A DNA stretch of 35,056 nucleotides from a virus (Duplodnaviria > Heunggongvirae > Uroviricota > Caudoviricetes). Below, piece by piece: positions 3,592-18,815 of this stretch. How positions within the stretch are numbered: the first letter of the stretch is position 1; each line of letters starts with the position of its first letter. The stretch is from the IMG/VR virus record IMGVR_UViG_2734482782_000004. One strand, given 5' to 3'. The position numbers were made by a program, and so were the translations under genes. Below the pieces are notes generated by a model. The model had not been told where the DNA came from and made no database searches. It was given only the letters and a program-made list of their open reading frames with translations.

Positions 3592-6039
3592 TTAACCGTC
3601 ATGCATCATGCTGGCACGGGCGCGCGCACGTTTATCCCGCTCGTATTTTTCGAGCGCATCCTGTAACTGGCGGTCGAGCTGTGTCCCCGGCGCAGTACCA
3701 CCCGTCAGGCTGATGTGATATTCGTTTTTACTCTGGTCTACATAAGAGCGGCCAGCAGGTGCCGTGACCGGCTGATAAGCCTGATAACCTGCATAAGAGC
3801 TGGTCGCCGGAATATAACCACCGCTGCCATACGTGGCGGCTTGAGTTCTGGCGGCGGTCTGGTCAAGTGTGTCTGACTCTTTGTTGATAACACCGAGTTT
3901 TTCCAGTACCCAGTCAATACCACTGCGCAGTTTGTTGAACGCATTAAGCGGCAGTATCAGCGCGTCAGCCAGTGCCTGCCCGAACATGACGCCCGTGTCA
4001 CGGCAACGGTTCAGGGTGTCCTGGGTGGCTTTGACCGGGGCAATCAGGTTTTTAAACCACTGCCACGCGGCCTGTAACTTTTCGCCCAGCCAGTCAAACA
4101 CCGGCTTCAGTGGCGTGAACAGTTCCCCCACCGGCGCAAATGCCGCTTTCAGCCCTTCAACCACACCGCCAAAGAATGCGCTGACAGGCTCCCAGTATTT
4201 ACGGATAAGCAACGCCCCGGCGACAATGGCGGCCACCACGGCCACAACCGGCCAGCTAATCGCCCCGATGGCCGTCATAACAGCACTGCTAACCGTCGTG
4301 AAGATTGCCCCCATTGCGCCTGCTGCCGCGATAATGGCATTGATGCCGGTGATAACCGGCCAGGCTACAAGACCAATGGCACCGATGATGCCAGTCAGCG
4401 CCAGCGCGCCACCGACAATGAGGCCGATGGTTGACGCCAGTGATTTGTTTTTCTGGATCCAGCCGTCGAGTTTTAACACATACTTTGTGGCCGTCTGTGT
4501 GAGCTTACGCAGTGCGCCTTCCTGCTGGTCAAACAGGTCAGTCCCCACCGCCTCATAAGCGGACTGAAACTCCTTAAAGTCACCGCCGAGGTTGTCCTGC
4601 ATGATATTTACCAGCTCTGCGGTCTTCCCGTCTGAGGCTTTAAACGCAGCGGTCAGTTTGTCCAGCTTTCCGGTTGAGGCGGCAGTCATCAGCACGGCGG
4701 CGGCTGAGCTGGCCTCCTCCCCGAAAATAGTTTTCATGTATTCAGCCTGCTGGGCAGTACCGAGCCGGTTTTTCTCAAAACTGGCCTGCATTTCTTTCAG
4801 AATGGTAAATACTGGTCGGGTGTTTCCCTTGCTGTCTGAGGTTTTCACTCCAAGCTCTTTGAGTGCATCCCATGCTTTTCCCGTCGGTGCCTGCAGGCGG
4901 CTTAACACGGCACGGCTTCCCGTCCCCGCCATTGAGCCTGTGATTTTTGCATCATGCAGCGCCCCGACCATTGCGGCGGTTTCTTCAATGCTGACACCGG
5001 CATTTTTTGCCACAGGTGCGGCATAGGTCAGCGCATCGCTCATGCCGTCAAAATCGGCGGCGGTTTTGTTCATCGTCATGGAGAGAACATCCCCTATATG
5101 AGCGACCTTATCGTTTGAAAGCTGAAAGGCGGATTTCATCCCCATCAGCAGGGCGGCGTTTTCTTCCATCGTGCGGCGGTTCGCCAGCGCCATATTCAGC
5201 GTGACCGGCGTTGCCGCCTGAATGGCATCAACATCCCCACCCGCTTTCGCGATGATAATCTGTGCACCGGCTGCATCATCTGCCGAGGCTGCGGTATTGT
5301 CGCCGAGCTGGCGCGCCTGCTTGCGGAGTGCGGTCATTTCGGCGGAGTCTTTTGCCACTCCTAGCACGGCCTGCAATTCTGAGTTTTTCTGCGCAAACTC
5401 ATAACCGGGCATCAGCAGCTTAACTCCGGCCATCGTTCCCGCCGCCGCAATCCCCACACCGGCAGCGCCCACCGAGGCCATATTTCCGGCCAGTTCCTTT
5501 CCGGCCTGATAACGCTGTTTTACTGCGTTAAGTTTTGCCTGTTGTGCACTGACACGCGCCAGCGCGTCGCGCTGTCGGTTAAGCTGTGCGGTGGTTTCAC
5601 TGATACGGTTTTTCAGTCCCTGCTCATCATGTGCAAGATTGCGGGTATTAATTCCCACAGCGGCCAGTTCCCGCTGCTGGCGTTTAACGGAATCCGTCAG
5701 GCGGTTATATTTCGCCTGTAAGTCCTCCGCCGCACGCTTTGCGGATTCCAGCACTTTCGCCTGAGCACGGGTCGGACGTTCGGTGTTTTTAAACTGTGTG
5801 GCAAGGGCTTCGGCCTCCTGCCGTGCCTTTTCAAGTGCATGACCAGTCACAGCGAGCTGTGCACTGGTCTTGCGGAATCCCTCAATACGGGATGCGTGAC
5901 CGTTCAGCTCGCGCAGTGATTTTTGTGTTTCCCGGATATCCCCCGACAGCGACTTACTCGCTGTGCGGATGGATTTAAACGGGCGGGATGCCTGGTCAAC
6001 AGCCCTGAGCAATACCTGTAATTTTACATTGTTACTCAT
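3592..6039 (-). CDS. T: Tail tape measure protein gpT
   Basis: 815-aa ORF (P2 T length); coiled-coil-rich N-terminal half, Ala/Gly-rich hydrophobic central segment; start ATG overlaps the E' stop. Confidence 0.85.
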   Translation of the reverse strand: MSNNVKLQVLLRAVDQASRPFKSIRTASKSLSGDIRETQKSLRELNGHASRIEGFRKTSAQLAVTGHALEKARQEAEALATQFKNTERPTRAQAKVLESAKRAAEDLQAKYNRLTDSVKRQQRELAAVGINTRNLAHDEQGLKNRISETTAQLNRQRDALARVSAQQAKLNAVKQRYQAGKELAGNMASVGAAGVGIAAAGTMAGVKLLMPGYEFAQKNSELQAVLGVAKDSAEMTALRKQARQLGDNTAASADDAAGAQIIIAKAGGDVDAIQAATPVTLNMALANRRTMEENAALLMGMKSAFQLSNDKVAHIGDVLSMTMNKTAADFDGMSDALTYAAPVAKNAGVSIEETAAMVGALHDAKITGSMAGTGSRAVLSRLQAPTGKAWDALKELGVKTSDSKGNTRPVFTILKEMQASFEKNRLGTAQQAEYMKTIFGEEASSAAAVLMTAASTGKLDKLTAAFKASDGKTAELVNIMQDNLGGDFKEFQSAYEAVGTDLFDQQEGALRKLTQTATKYVLKLDGWIQKNKSLASTIGLIVGGALALTGIIGAIGLVAWPVITGINAIIAAAGAMGAIFTTVSSAVMTAIGAISWPVVAVVAAIVAGALLIRKYWEPVSAFFGGVVEGLKAAFAPVGELFTPLKPVFDWLGEKLQAAWQWFKNLIAPVKATQDTLNRCRDTGVMFGQALADALILPLNAFNKLRSGIDWVLEKLGVINKESDTLDQTAARTQAATYGSGGYIPATSSYAGYQAYQPVTAPAGRSYVDQSKNEYHISLTGGTAPGTQLDRQLQDALEKYERDKRARARASMMHDG

Positions 6040-8602: not shown

Positions 8603-9355
8603 ATGACCAAGACAAATAGGCACAACTTTCCTCCAAGCGTTGTAGGTAAGGTAGCAGAGCGCGCTGCATATATTTGTAGCAATCCCTCTTGTCATAGGGT
8701 AACAATCGGCCCGGATCAATTGGCGGAAAATCTTTCTATCAAGACGGGTGAGGCGGCGCATATCTGCGCGGCGAGCCCTGGCGGACCGCGCTATGACATG
8801 TCTCAGTCAGAAACAGAGCGGAAGAGCATAAAAAATGCTATATGGTTGTGCGGAGCTTGTGCTGATTTAGTTGATAAGAATGGCGGTATGGGCTACCCCG
8901 CCGAGTATTTGCGAAAATGGAAACGTGACCACGAATCACTAATGAAGGAGTGCTTGGAGGGAGGAAAGAGGCTAATTTTTCAATTTCTATCGCATCGCCC
9001 AGACGAGAAAATTGCTCTGCGGGTGATCCATTTATTGGAAGACAAGAGTTCTCTTTATCTGCCATATGCTCAAGAGGATCCAGCACGAGTCTCGGATTCT
9101 TTGAAGGAGCTCCGACTCTCTCTTACGGCGATTCGCTCCGAGATTGCACCTGAGTCTCCGCTATCGTTGATCGTCGAGTCAATTGTCCGTGCGTGCCGAC
9201 ACTATATGAATTCAACGCCAGATCGGCCGGGCATTGATGAGCTTAACTTCTCCCTCGGCGCAGTTCGTAAGGTAGTAGGAATTAACATCGGAGAACTATT
9301 GAAACACTATGAAATCCAGGTGAGTCACGAATTGCATTCTATTATTCCTAAATGA
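8603..9355 (+). CDS. Cargo protein with N-terminal HNH-like nuclease motif and a C-terminal domain of unknown function (candidate defence effector)
   Basis: 250-aa ORF in AT-rich DNA at the Z/fun position; residues 25-93 read C-x4-C-H ... GEAAHICAASPGG ... N-x4-LCGAC ... DKN, resembling the HNH beta-beta-alpha-Me fold with a Cys4 zinc knuckle; own terminator at 9378..9412. Confidence 0.6.
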   Translation: MTKTNRHNFPPSVVGKVAERAAYICSNPSCHRVTIGPDQLAENLSIKTGEAAHICAASPGGPRYDMSQSETERKSIKNAIWLCGACADLVDKNGGMGYPAEYLRKWKRDHESLMKECLEGGKRLIFQFLSHRPDEKIALRVIHLLEDKSSLYLPYAQEDPARVSDSLKELRLSLTAIRSEIAPESPLSLIVESIVRACRHYMNSTPDRPGIDELNFSLGAVRKVVGINIGELLKHYEIQVSHELHSIIPK

Positions 9356-9516: not shown

Positions 9517-10302
9517 TTACATCAAAAATAACTTACAATATTTGTAAGTTGCTTTGTGTACGAAAATGCTTGCGTCAACTCTTGACATCGGATTTTTTAA
9601 TATCCCTCCGGAACTTCCCTTTCCATGTCTCGCAAGATACCCTAACAGTTCAAAGCTATTAGCAGTGCCCGTGAATCTGCTGATTTCCTTTTCATCAATA
9701 TTAAAAGCCATGCTAATTACTTTATCTCTCTGATATTTCTTGCCTTTATAAGTGTCGGGAAAATTTAGTATACCTTTCACATATTTATCATATACATATT
9801 CTCTAATTGTTTCCCACAAACGATAAAGATTAACCCAATCATCACCTAAGGCACACATACCTAAAACAACACGTAAGGATTCATGTTTAGATGATAAATT
9901 AATTAATCGTGAAAAATTATCAGCGCGAGGGTGTGGTTGCTGTATGTCATGGAAATTAAAGGGGTTTACCTGAGTTACATCCATTGATTTAAAGCCGCAT
10001 ATTTCCGAGTAATTAATGCCTTCACTTCCAGAAATAGAAAGAGGACCAAAAGATTGATATCTTTCAAAACCATAAAGAACGCTAAGTGCGCCGTTCATGA
10101 GCATCAACAAACCTTTTAACTTGGAAGCCAATTCATTTGGGTCGGATATGATATTCAAATGAGGAGATGAAAGTAAATGAATATCTGTTTGCCCTAAATC
10201 AGAGTCAGAATCATCATTTATAGAGAAATCATTCGACCAAACTCCACATAATCTTTTAACAAATCCTGTAGATGGAGTAAGTAAAAAACTATAATCGTAC
10301 AT
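9517..10302 (-). CDS. Hypothetical cargo protein, 261 aa, no recognisable motif
   Basis: Long ORF in strongly AT-rich DNA, where chance ORFs of this length are unlikely; ATG at 10300..10302 preceded by GAGGGA about 8 nt upstream; convergent with the HNH-like gene. Confidence 0.55.
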   Translation of the reverse strand: MYDYSFLLTPSTGFVKRLCGVWSNDFSINDDSDSDLGQTDIHLLSSPHLNIISDPNELASKLKGLLMLMNGALSVLYGFERYQSFGPLSISGSEGINYSEICGFKSMDVTQVNPFNFHDIQQPHPRADNFSRLINLSSKHESLRVVLGMCALGDDWVNLYRLWETIREYVYDKYVKGILNFPDTYKGKKYQRDKVISMAFNIDEKEISRFTGTANSFELLGYLARHGKGSSGGILKNPMSRVDASIFVHKATYKYCKLFLM

Positions 10303-10656: not shown

Positions 10657-11340
10657 TTACAGTTTATCGCTTATGAATCCATGAGCCTTAAATGTCCTGA
10701 CAAAATCCTCATAGCGCGCAATCATCCCCCCCGATGTTTCACGCACATTTTGCTGATGAAAGCGGAAGTTTGCCTCCGATTCAACACTCTTACTCTTCCA
10801 GTCATGGGGAAGGCTTAGCATCACTGGCTTTCTGTTCGGGTAATCAACACTCATAAATGGTAGCGTACTATCTACGTATGCGGTCATAGCGTCCAAAAAA
10901 GCGTCTTTCGCACCATTCACTTCAGTATTGAATAACCGATACTTTTCACCGCTAAATTTTTCAGCTTTTTCAATGTTTAAGCAAACATCTTGCCGTATAC
11001 CGCTCAGGTAGCTCTGCTCAACCCATTGAGTAGTATCCTCATAAGGCAGCAATTCAAGGATCTGGTCGATTATCTTCAGATCATGTTCATCTTGCTTTTT
11101 TTTTACAGGGTCCTCAGTAGATTCATTGGATGTGTGGTAAACGTTGGTGGTCTGATTAATATCCCGCCCGGCCTGGTTCACATCACCCTCGGTTTTCTTT
11201 GCCTTCTGTTTTATGTTGTTTTGCTGTCTGATTCTATATGTAACACCGCCCCCAATACCAAACAGTGCCAGTACGCCGACTAATAAGCTAAGATAGGTAG
11301 CTGCGTCTGCACCAAAATGTGCATTAAGCCATTCAGTCAT
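10657..11340 (-). CDS. Cargo membrane-anchored protein, 227 aa (N-terminal TM helix, then soluble domain); candidate single-gene defence or abortive-infection effector
   Basis: ORF with hydrophobic segment AATYLSLLVGVLALFGIGGGV at residues about 12-33; own extended -10 promoter and own terminator; AAGGA ribosome-binding site. Confidence 0.6.
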   Translation of the reverse strand: MTEWLNAHFGADAATYLSLLVGVLALFGIGGGVTYRIRQQNNIKQKAKKTEGDVNQAGRDINQTTNVYHTSNESTEDPVKKKQDEHDLKIIDQILELLPYEDTTQWVEQSYLSGIRQDVCLNIEKAEKFSGEKYRLFNTEVNGAKDAFLDAMTAYVDSTLPFMSVDYPNRKPVMLSLPHDWKSKSVESEANFRFHQQNVRETSGGMIARYEDFVRTFKAHGFISDKL

Positions 11341-16126: not shown

Positions 16127-16474
16127 TCAACTCACAGGGATGGTTAACGAAAGTGGCTGGCCGGTGTCGTTGTGCTGGCCGGTTAACGTGACCGTCATTC
16201 GCCCGTCAAAACTGCGCTCAGTGGTGACGGATGACAGGGTGACGCGGGGTTCCCATTTCAGTACCGCCATGTAACAGGCGACCTTAATCTGCAACTCAAG
16301 CGCCGGGGTCTGCGGCTGGTCAATCATTGACGCCAGCAACGAGCCGTAATCACGACGCATCACCCGTGAGCCGACCGGTGTGCGCAGGATATCGCCGATA
16401 CTCTGGCTGATATGCTCAAGGTCAGTGACCGTCAGGCCATCACTGCGATTCATTCCGAGATAACGCGCTGTCAT
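16127..16474 (-). CDS. W: Baseplate protein gpW
   Basis: 115-aa ORF, P2 W length and position. Confidence 0.8.
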   Translation of the reverse strand: MTARYLGMNRSDGLTVTDLEHISQSIGDILRTPVGSRVMRRDYGSLLASMIDQPQTPALELQIKVACYMAVLKWEPRVTLSSVTTERSFDGRMTVTLTGQHNDTGQPLSLTIPVS

Positions 16475-17100
16475 AGAGGACTCCCGGTTTTGCCGCCGCT
16501 GTCGCCGGGGTGTTTATGGGTATGCAGTACCTTCCCGTTTGATGAAAGTTCACCGCCGGTGTGTTCAATGTTGCCGCGCATCGTCCCGCCCTTCTGCACT
16601 TCCAGCGTGCCGGTAATCAGCTTGTTGGTGCAGACCACCTCCGGTGTGTCCAGGGTGACGCGGGTTGATGCTTTCACCATGACCACCGGCACCGTGGCAG
16701 TAACAGAATCAGAAGCCGTCACGCTGGCCGTTTTAATTCCGCTTACCGTGAGTGCACTGGTTTCAGGTTCATACTCAATCACCGCCCCGTCAGGGAAACG
16801 GATATGCAGGGCATCCGCCGACGCCGACGGCGCGGGGTTATCGCCGGAATAAATCCCCGGCAGAACAAACGCCGTGTCAAGTTCACCGCCCACGGCCAGA
16901 ATCAGCACCTGTTCCCCCACGGAAGGTGCCCACCATGTGCGCGAACGACCGGCGCGATGGGTCAGCCACTGAAGCCAGTCGGTGCACATGCCGCCGGTCT
17001 GCACACGGCAGCGACCGGCATTAAGGTCGGTTTCGACGATAATGCCAGTGCGAATCATATTGCGTATAAAGCGAAGAATTTCATTGTATTGTGCATTCAT
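16471..17100 (-). CDS. V: Baseplate spike protein gpV
   Basis: 209-aa product from the internal ATG (MNAQYNEILRFIRNMIRTGIIVETDLNAGR...); the longer track ORF begins at an upstream alternative start inside cargo DNA. Confidence 0.8.
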   Translation of the reverse strand: MNAQYNEILRFIRNMIRTGIIVETDLNAGRCRVQTGGMCTDWLQWLTHRAGRSRTWWAPSVGEQVLILAVGGELDTAFVLPGIYSGDNPAPSASADALHIRFPDGAVIEYEPETSALTVSGIKTASVTASDSVTATVPVVMVKASTRVTLDTPEVVCTNKLITGTLEVQKGGTMRGNIEHTGGELSSNGKVLHTHKHPGDSGGKTGSPL

Positions 17101-17186
17101 TCGATAATAATGATTCTGTACAATCTCGAAGTAAATCACACCACGATTTCTGGTGCACAGAACAACAAGGGACAACAAAATCCATT

Positions 17187-18260
17187 ATGAGTACTTACTT
17201 TTTCTCGTCAGAAACAATGAAAGAATTGTTCAAAGATTATCTGGTCTTTTTGAACACGCTGACTCCCAGCACAAACTTTGAATCAAACAGAAACAAAATA
17301 ATTGCTCAAGCAATAAACTTCATTTCCGAAAACCCTGAAGATTGGGACAAAAAATCCCAGTACAACATTGCTATGATTGGCGACACCTTTAAAAGTTTCT
17401 TAAGAGAAAAGGGAGAAGATAACAACAGCATCAACCTTATATTCACTTGCTTTTTTAGATTTATCATTGAACCAAGCATTCTCTCTCCGGAAATAGAGTC
17501 TCACTTTTCACCACTAAGAACCATCAAGGATTTTGCTCTGTATAACTATAATGAATTCGATGAGCGGAGCAGAGCACAGATAGACTTTTCTCTTAGAGAA
17601 CTGCCATTAGCAATGGTTAAAGAAGTTTTAAGCTCCAGCAATGTTGACACATATAAAAAATACATTGATAGTTTAAACGAAGGGCGTCAATTTTTCGAAA
17701 AGTGCGACTCCTTCTTAAAGGAGCAACATGCCAAAATAGAGTCAATTAAAGAGTCATTAAAAGGGTATGAGGTCGCATTTAATTTTGTTGGACTGTTTGA
17801 AGGCTTTAATTCACTTGGCAAAAAGAAAGAAAGTGAAATCATGCTATCAAGAATAATTCTTATCATCTTGGCTATAATCATTCCCTCCCCGCTGATATAC
17901 TATGGAATGCATAAATTACCAGCTCTCGAAACGACAAATGCTGCCACATATTTTATGTCAGCACTACCTTTTGCATCAGTTACATTGATTTTCATGTATT
18001 ACTTTAGAGTTGTACTGCTAAATCATATATCGTTACGAACTCAGATTATGCAAATAGAACTCAGAAAGAGCCTTTGTCAGTTCATTCAGAGTTATAGCGA
18101 CTATTCCTCAGAGATAAGGAAAAACAATCCGGAAGCGCTTTCAAAATTCGAAGACGTAGTATTTTCAAACATCATGCTATCCGATGATAAGATACCATCT
18201 ACATTTGATGGCATTGAGCAAATAGCATCGTTAATCAATTCATTAAAAAATGGAAAGTAA
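17187..18260 (+). CDS. Cargo membrane protein, 357 aa (soluble N-domain of about 215 aa, two TM helices, C-terminal tail of about 80 aa), at the S-V junction (P2 orf30 position)
   Basis: AT-rich ORF opposite in strand to the tail genes; ATG at 17187 with AAGGGA 14 nt upstream (the next ATG is at 17217); hydrophobic segments IMLSRIILIILAIIIPSPLIYYG and AATYFMSALPFASVTLIFMYYFRVVLL; followed by a bidirectional terminator. Confidence 0.6.
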   Translation: MSTYFFSSETMKELFKDYLVFLNTLTPSTNFESNRNKIIAQAINFISENPEDWDKKSQYNIAMIGDTFKSFLREKGEDNNSINLIFTCFFRFIIEPSILSPEIESHFSPLRTIKDFALYNYNEFDERSRAQIDFSLRELPLAMVKEVLSSSNVDTYKKYIDSLNEGRQFFEKCDSFLKEQHAKIESIKESLKGYEVAFNFVGLFEGFNSLGKKKESEIMLSRIILIILAIIIPSPLIYYGMHKLPALETTNAATYFMSALPFASVTLIFMYYFRVVLLNHISLRTQIMQIELRKSLCQFIQSYSDYSSEIRKNNPEALSKFEDVVFSNIMLSDDKIPSTFDGIEQIASLINSLKNGK

Positions 18261-18264
18261 TGAT

Positions 18265-18290
18265 AAAAGGCCAATAACTGGCCTTTTATT
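18265..18290. terminator. Bidirectional rho-independent terminator between the cargo gene and gpS
   Basis: Hairpin aaaaggcca-ataac-tggcctttt with T-tract on the plus strand and A-tract upstream (T-tract on the minus strand). Confidence 0.65.
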
Positions 18291-18362
18291 TATTAACATG
18301 AAAATTCAAAATAAATTATGCTAATCAATTGATTTCTATCTTATATTCTCAGATGATTAAAG

Positions 18363-18815
18363 CTAACGATTCAGGTGAGCCAGGATAATCTCTTCAATCA
18401 TCTGCACATCCTCACCGGTAAAGCCGAGCAGAGGACGCGCCGGATAATCAATTTTCTTACCGTCTTTCCGGGTTTCTTCCGACAGACCGAACTGATGCAC
18501 ACTGGCGATTTTCGGTGACTTCCCGCCGTAAAACTCCATTGCTGCCTGTTCAGGGCTGGCGCGGATATGCAAAAAACGACTGGTGATAAGTTTCGCAAAC
18601 ATTTTTCGCTTAACGCGACCGGTCTTTTTTCTGGCGCTCTGCTGCTGGCGTGGTGCGTAGGGTGTGCCGTCCGGGGCTTTCTGTGCCATCACCCGGCGCT
18701 GCTGACTCTGCCGCAGACGTTTCGCCAGTTCGGCGCTCAGTCGCCGACGCCCTGACGGTGACAGCGATTCAATAAGTCCGGTCAGCCGGTCTTCAAAACG
18801 CTTAAACTCATTCAT
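18363..18815 (-). CDS. S: Tail completion protein gpS
   Basis: 150-aa ORF, P2 S length and position. Confidence 0.8.
   Translation of the reverse strand: MNEFKRFEDRLTGLIESLSPSGRRRLSAELAKRLRQSQQRRVMAQKAPDGTPYAPRQQQSARKKTGRVKRKMFAKLITSRFLHIRASPEQAAMEFYGGKSPKIASVHQFGLSEETRKDGKKIDYPARPLLGFTGEDVQMIEEIILAHLNR

Follow-up and report, generated by a model that had tools for sequence, protein, structure and literature searches.

Membrane-acting abortive infection is exemplified by lambda RexAB and by pore-type effectors with two transmembrane (TM) helices (e.g. SLATT-domain proteins), in which a cytoplasmic sensor is combined with a small TM module through which membrane integrity is lost. The prophage-encoded inner-membrane protein SieA of P22 (164 aa) has been demonstrated to block DNA injection, and its gene stands alone in opposite orientation where the virion gene block ends, abutting virion/ejection genes. 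Highly divergent SieA types, <30% identical in sequence, occupy this one locus (PMC10883804). In phage P2, orf30, annotated as 'nonessential', is located at the junction of the tail genes S and V. Many defence systems have already been recovered from the old/tin and Z/fun hotspots of P2-like prophages (PMC9122126, PMC13586616). Hotspot surveys focus on these two sites and mention hotspots 'within the tail genes' in passing (PMC13586616; bioRxiv 10.1101/2024.10.15.618418), and the S/V (orf30) junction was not mined for defence systems in the published surveys examined. Here, we describe the S/V junction of a P2-like prophage contained in the IMG/VR record IMGVR_UViG_2734482782_000004 (Caudoviricetes; 35,056 bp, referred to in its full length as the window), which directly adjoins the host gene yegQ. 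The exact interval between gpV and gpS (17101-18362, 1,262 bp) carries an opposite-strand gene for a 357-aa protein with two predicted TM helices, hereafter the cargo gene. The gene forms a non-essential, compositionally foreign and exchangeable prophage cassette, and its product is probably a phage-exclusion protein of some kind. The coordinates of all features are compiled in Table 1.

The S-V junction of the prophage has been replaced by a cassette of ~1.3 kb (~17056-18362). The GC content is 0.29-0.36 across 17100-18400 (0.35 in the cargo gene itself) vs 0.55-0.65 in the flanks, and the cargo gene is transcribed opposite to gpV and gpS, so that the AT-rich ~1.26-kb insert with a 357-aa open reading frame (ORF; 17187-18260) between V and S described in the initial annotation was recovered as such. 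The AT-rich tract begins within gpV (~17056), whose first 45 nt have a GC content of 0.31 vs 0.56 in P2 and D8; the encoded N-terminus is MNAQYNEILRFIRNM in the window vs MNTLANIQELARALRNM in P2 and D8. When the junction was aligned with those of P2 and D8, homology on the right side began again with the stop codon of gpS, and on the left side only ~13 codons into gpV. Codons 1-13 of gpV were assigned to the swapped cassette because they are AT-rich and differ from those of P2 and D8. The segment 17056-17186 was present in exactly the same 60 E. coli genomes, and at the same 61 places, as the cargo gene. From this perfect linkage and the breaks in homology, it follows that cargo gene and terminator form one mobile unit together with the 5' end of gpV and the PV promoter region. 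Since the gpV start lies inside the linked cassette, exchange of the cassette rewrites both the start and the late promoter of gpV. The replacement N-terminus is two residues shorter, and gpV is an essential baseplate-spike gene.

The cargo protein matched the hidden Markov model of PHROG 9373 over its full length (E 8.6e-134; residues 13-356 on profile positions 7-387 of 388). This family is annotated as 'unknown function', so that membership names the protein without explaining its role. Relatives were numerous: one database gave 348 matches and a second, clustered at 50% identity, gave 925 representatives, of which 667 had E<1e-30. Nearly all of them are 350-390 aa long and share a single architecture, and those that carry a name are all 'hypothetical'; PHROG 9373 is thus a large orphan family with one architecture. 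No mention of PHROG 9373 or of the UniProt and RefSeq accessions of the cargo protein was met in any paper found in a literature search.

The cargo gene is real and under purifying selection. Given the local base composition, the chance probability of a 357-codon open frame is ~2e-12, and the ratio of nonsynonymous to synonymous substitution rates (dN/dS) between two E. coli cargo alleles was 0.13, with similar values in both halves of the protein. RefSeq places the start at M11 (347 aa) in one genome and at M1 (357 aa) in another; the 357-aa start at 17187 was preferred because F6 is invariant across the PHROG 9373 family. A spurious or decaying ORF within AT-rich junk DNA, for which the truncated appearance of two near-identical E. 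coli-type alleles in IMG/VR (L067 and L069) might speak, is effectively refuted by these values, by hundreds of full-length homologues in multiple phyla and by the confident model obtained for the N-terminal domain. The copies in L067 and L069 are 97% identical, and their tblastn match ends at about residue 215, which suggests that they are frameshifted or truncated pseudogenes.

To describe the occupancy of the site, three sets of genomes can be considered. The S-V junction is empty in phage D8, with a gap of 66 bp, and in 12W and P24E6b, which have the same empty 66-bp junction, whereas P2 carries orf30 there. Of 5426 complete E. coli genomes, 1,576 (~29%) contain a P2-like prophage as judged by gpS, which was detected at 1,803 places; orf30 was detected at 482 places and the cargo cassette at 61 places in 60 genomes (~1%). 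The proposal that the gene is a moron is borne out by its foreign composition, its absence from D8, 12W and P24E6b and its presence at 61 of ~1800 E. coli gpS loci. Among the 80 viral contigs in IMG/VR that encode a relative, the gene occupies the S/V junction in opposite orientation in 71 (65 with both gpV and gpS flanking it, six with one of them at the contig end), and this geometry is constant at gpV identities of 53-100%. The same opposite-strand S/V arrangement was found in prophages of Erwinia, Pectobacterium and Enterobacter and in two Yersinia enterocolitica peduoviruses, whose relatives are 37-38% identical to the cargo protein. The remaining nine contigs belong to phages of other types, among them the 110-kb Klebsiella phage-plasmids.

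In eight contig pairs, V and S were >90% identical, but the cargo alleles only 38-54%. Across P2-like contigs, cargo identity followed that of the backbone weakly, with a Spearman's rho of 0.24 between the identities of cargo and V (non-clonal pairs) vs 0.43 for V and S. Divergent cargo genes on near-identical backbones indicate that family members are exchanged at a fixed site, a pattern expected of specificity or immunity genes. In other P2-like phages, a second cargo gene is located between the family member and gpS. These genes include HigB-HigA, an ORF6N-domain protein (~210-220 aa; six IMG/VR contigs and the Pectobacterium locus L009), the 8xMP 'octameric membrane protein' (PF24838) and an unannotated 256-aa membrane protein between duplicated S and V fragments. 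The presence of HigBA, ORF6N and 8xMP at the same junction identifies S/V as a general accessory hotspot. The S/V junction is therefore a true multi-allelic hotspot, and the PHROG 9373 family is its commonest non-Orf30 occupant across Enterobacterales.

The two hydrophobic helices, the soluble N-terminal part of ~215 residues and the 80-residue tail noted in the initial annotation were reproduced by Kyte-Doolittle analysis and by AlphaFold. Hydropathy peaks were obtained at residues 218-240 and ~253-277, separated by a 12-residue loop. AlphaFold returned an all-helical protein with a mean predicted local distance difference test score (pLDDT) of 79, and residues 1-152 modelled alone with AlphaFold2 reached a pLDDT of 92.8 and a predicted template modelling score of 0.88. 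In the full-length model, a helix of ~65 residues runs towards the membrane and residues 194-198 form a low-confidence hinge; TM helix 2 extends as a long helix, and two short helices flank the PSTFDG motif. The C-terminal module comprises, in order, the post-TM helix QIELRKSLCQFIQSY, the segment KFEDVVFSNIM, the invariant PSTFDG and a terminal amphipathic helix. Lysine and arginine residues average 3.0 before TM helix 1 and 0.7 in the loop across the family, a bias from which both termini are predicted to be cytoplasmic. The cargo protein is accordingly predicted from its sequence to be an N-in/C-in inner-membrane protein with two TM helices, a topology that would place nearly the whole protein on the cytoplasmic side. 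Mean pairwise identity is 28% for residues 1-194 vs 53% for residues 195-357. The most variable segment is the loop predicted to be periplasmic, and the least variable are the post-TM2 helix and the PSTFDG region. Swapping of N-terminal domains was considered and rejected: overall layout and length are preserved in distant members such as the Klebsiella phage-plasmid protein, which contain no recognisable alternative domains.

Downstream of the cargo gene, a stable hairpin (18263-18289) is predicted on both strands, with ΔG values of -16.2 and -14.3 kcal/mol and z-scores of -5.2 and -4.3. On the + strand it precedes a U-run, and on the - strand its position matches the O-operon terminator annotated in P2, in agreement with the bidirectional terminator postulated earlier. 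The 86-bp region 17101-17186 must hold the late promoter PV. By eye, in comparison with the annotated P2 site, an Ogr-site-like sequence (TGTTGTC...GTTCT, ~17152-17177) was recognised on the - strand just upstream of the cargo ATG. The 5' leader of the cargo gene contains AAGGGA 14 nt before the ATG. An Rfam search of the insert for non-coding RNAs gave none.

Among the systems described above, orf30 resembles the cargo gene in its setting: both lie at the S/V site in the same, opposite-strand orientation, are AT-rich and non-essential, and are followed by a terminator hairpin. Orf30 is also a predicted membrane protein, but it has 261 residues rather than 357, three hydrophobic segments and a different topology. 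The initial annotation, which correctly placed the nonessential P2 gene at this junction, had left the identity of the two proteins undecided; the cargo protein is not P2 Orf30 (AAD03281), as judged by a best BLASTP E value of 1.6 and a probability of 0.17% upon hhalign comparison of the family profile. The cargo gene resembles P22 sieA in that both are lone prophage genes that encode an inner-membrane protein, run on the opposite strand and border virion genes, and in that highly divergent types occupy one locus. Unlike the cargo protein, SieA has no large soluble domain, and its role was demonstrated, whereas that of the cargo protein is inferred. Neither SieA nor SieB is a homologue (hhalign probability 0.2% for both). 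RexAB and the SLATT-type effectors offer an analogy: they are likewise prophage-encoded, and the logic proposed below for the cargo protein would be the same. RexAB, however, consists of two polypeptides vs one in the cargo, and no Pfam or PADLOC match to such effector families was obtained for 35 members of the cargo family.

A role in lysogenic conversion or defence, as suggested in the initial annotation, is no more than a reasonable inference from the behaviour of the locus and the architecture of the protein. For the phage-exclusion protein considered here, an abortive, sensor-plus-membrane-effector mechanism is tentatively favoured, because the TM hairpin and the cytoplasmic membrane-proximal motifs are conserved while the large N-domain evolves fast, and because only a short variable loop could reach the periplasm. 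The protein would be expressed from the prophage as a single-polypeptide exclusion factor, whose variable N-domain might recognise a cytoplasmic cue of the infecting phage. The TM hairpin and the C-terminal module would then oligomerise or rearrange and compromise the inner membrane, and the resulting damage would abort the infection, following a RexA/RexB-like logic in one chain. Counted in favour of exclusion are the accessory status and foreign composition of a constrained gene, its fixed site and orientation, the swapping of its alleles, the variable N-domain joined to a conserved membrane module, the predicted topology and the other accessory cargo at this junction. In addition, temperate elements besides P2-like phages (Klebsiella phage-plasmids and a recombinase-bearing element) also carry the family as a lone opposite-strand gene.

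Several results weigh against this interpretation. The searches of the cargo protein revealed no homology to a known defence, abortive infection (Abi) or superinfection exclusion (Sie) protein: the best Pfam match, DUF3810, scored 14.3 bits and thus remained below the gathering score (cut-off 28), no PADLOC-DB v2.0.0 family was matched (0 families), and NCBIfam gave no significant match. Among 35 members of the family, no Pfam family was common to more than three, and PADLOC produced scattered single matches only (E>=0.003). Structure searches, including the PDB, matched nothing more specific than helical hairpins and bundles of a generic kind. In the one allele pair tested, dN/dS gave no sign of positive selection in the N-domain. 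As a promoter scan found no sigma-70 consensus on the + strand upstream of the cargo ORF, expression of the gene in lysogens is only assumed. The 100 nearest-neighbour ORFs at 29 non-P2 loci (two ORFs per side) were mostly housekeeping genes; they included few matches to defence models (one type I methyltransferase, JukA, AbiP and LmuA) and a few recombinases. With so few defence neighbours among two ORFs per side, there is no defence-island signal. Oligomerisation and pore formation by the cargo protein are purely conjectural, and a P2-specific Sie protein would account at least equally well for the tight tie of the family to P2-like phages.

The latter possibility, a SieA-like factor that blocks DNA delivery at the inner membrane, chiefly of P2-like phages and without killing the cell, is the strongest rival explanation, albeit a rather unlikely one. 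The association of 71 of 80 contigs with one site of one phage family is what would be expected of a factor aimed at relatives, and the setting of sieA and the swapping of divergent cargo alleles between near-identical backbones point in the same direction. However, the cargo protein is unrelated in sequence to SieA and SieB, the periplasm would see only the variable loop of ~12 residues, as the conserved parts are predicted to be cytoplasmic, the 215-residue cytoplasmic domain has no obvious role in a block of entry, and isolated chromosomal members exist in distant phyla (Geotalea, Pedobacter, Nitrospirales). The protein might instead serve lysogenic conversion or host fitness in a manner unrelated to exclusion, for instance in envelope stress tolerance, in the regulation of transport or as a selfish or toxic element. 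Such a function would suit a single gene with no partner, adjoined mainly by housekeeping genes in its non-phage copies and lacking a match to defence models, and a universal host factor could be what the conserved cytoplasmic motifs bind. The swapping of alleles in a hotspot and the fast-evolving N-domain are nevertheless more typical of conflict genes, and toxin-antitoxin and other accessory cargo occurs at the same junction; a host-fitness role is considered unlikely.

Least probable of these functional alternatives, and very unlikely overall, is an accessory role in the lytic cycle, either in the timing of lysis or in the membrane-side assembly of the tail or baseplate. The position of the cargo gene between late operons, next to the late promoter PV, and its retention at S/V across deep P2-like divergence could be taken to support it. 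Yet D8, 12W and P24E6b are viable with an empty site, P2 has Orf30 instead, and the direction of transcription of the gene is opposite to that of both late operons; it is these empty-site phages and the opposite orientation that make a role in morphogenesis or lysis unlikely. Furthermore, a full lysis cassette is present elsewhere in the window, and the family also occurs in non-phage contexts. A holin was rejected as a candidate, given that the cargo protein is too large and its gene wrongly oriented and that the window has its own holin-endolysin-spanin block.

Abortive exclusion by a membrane effector thus remains the preferred reading, and the cargo protein most probably represents an uncharacterised family with a known kind of job in an under-explored P2 hotspot. 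It is doubtful whether a bolder proposal applies, according to which PHROG 9373 would be a widespread single-polypeptide anti-phage family with an exchangeable allele series at S/V, composed of a fast-evolving cytoplasmic helical sensor, a coiled-coil stalk and a conserved TM hairpin with PSTFDG module that upon infection kills or seals the cell membrane, with a mechanism and fold unlike those of catalogued defence systems. Should the cargo protein act in defence or exclusion, it would represent a new single-gene family and supply a natural set of specificity variants with which the sensed cue could be mapped. Otherwise, it remains a conserved membrane protein carried by phages and present in ~1% of complete E. 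coli genomes.

Outside the P2 backbone, all-against-all clustering of flanking ORFs did not identify a conserved partner gene. In the species representatives of GTDB, the majority of copies are isolated genes on the chromosomes of very diverse bacteria (e.g. Vibrio, Geotalea, Pedobacter, Nitrospirales). In the ~110-kb Klebsiella phage-plasmids (~220 plasmid records), the distant homologue of 388 aa (L048, 4572-5738 in Klebsiella phage pJN2-26) lies alone on the opposite strand and adjoins primase, helicase and ligase genes; it is 26-30% identical over the C-terminal two-thirds. A proteobacterial metagenome-assembled genome (MAG) contains a family member in a recombinase-bearing mobile element (L045, 8145-9077), two genes from putAbiC (PF16872) and downstream of a DUF6338 gene. 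In a Buttiauxella MAG (L043/L044, 6001-7077), a 40%-identical member is located alone between yegQ and yegS. Phage genes were not seen near this copy, which may be what is left of a P2-like prophage that decayed in the same attachment region.

Table 1. Coordinates of the features discussed (positions refer to the window unless a locus is named).
Feature	Position	Strand	Remarks
gpV, baseplate spike gene	16471-17100	-	209 aa; left flank
gpV codons 1-13	~17056-17100	-	AT-rich, unlike P2 and D8
Divergent intergenic region	17101-17186		86 bp; PV promoter region and cargo 5' leader
Cargo gene	17187-18260	+	ATG start, 357 aa, stop codon included; PHROG 9373 member
N-terminal helical bundle (residues 1-152)	17187-17642	+	Seven helices, predicted cytoplasmic; variable part of family
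Long helix/stalk (153-193), low-confidence hinge (194-198) and conserved amphipathic FNFVGLxxGF segment (195-217)	17643-17837	+	
TM helix 1 (residues 218-240)	17838-17906	+	Preceded by KKK
TM helix 2 (residues 253-277)	17943-18017	+	Invariant P261, Y271, F273; near-invariant R274
Conserved C-terminal module	18018-18257	+	Predicted cytoplasmic; lowest column entropy in family (0.6-0.8 bits)
GC-cored hairpin	18263-18289		Putative terminator for both directions
gpS, tail-completion gene	18363-18815	-	Right flank
ORF between tail sheath FI and fibre-assembly genes	8603-9355	+	250 aa; Z/fun hotspot
Z/fun-region cargo ORF	9517-10302	-	261 aa; GC ~0.34
Z/fun-region cargo ORF	10657-11340	-	227 aa
S/V second cargo loci	L099/L110 5041-5871; L093/L103/L105/L116/L009 ~4100-4730; L080/L118 4192-4860; L094/L095 4500-5270		

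The window harbours further cargo in the Z/fun region. The two ORFs on the - strand were without match in Pfam and PADLOC; the first of them, although equal in length to P2 Orf30, is unrelated to it. The 250-aa ORF on the + strand had no Pfam match, and its N-terminal 120 residues matched several endonuclease models of PADLOC: PDC-M68A (E 4e-24), the 'Effector endonuclease' of the cyclic oligonucleotide-based anti-phage signalling system (CBASS) and SAVED-HNH. Within the classical Z/fun hotspot, this ORF is a likely candidate for nuclease-type defence.
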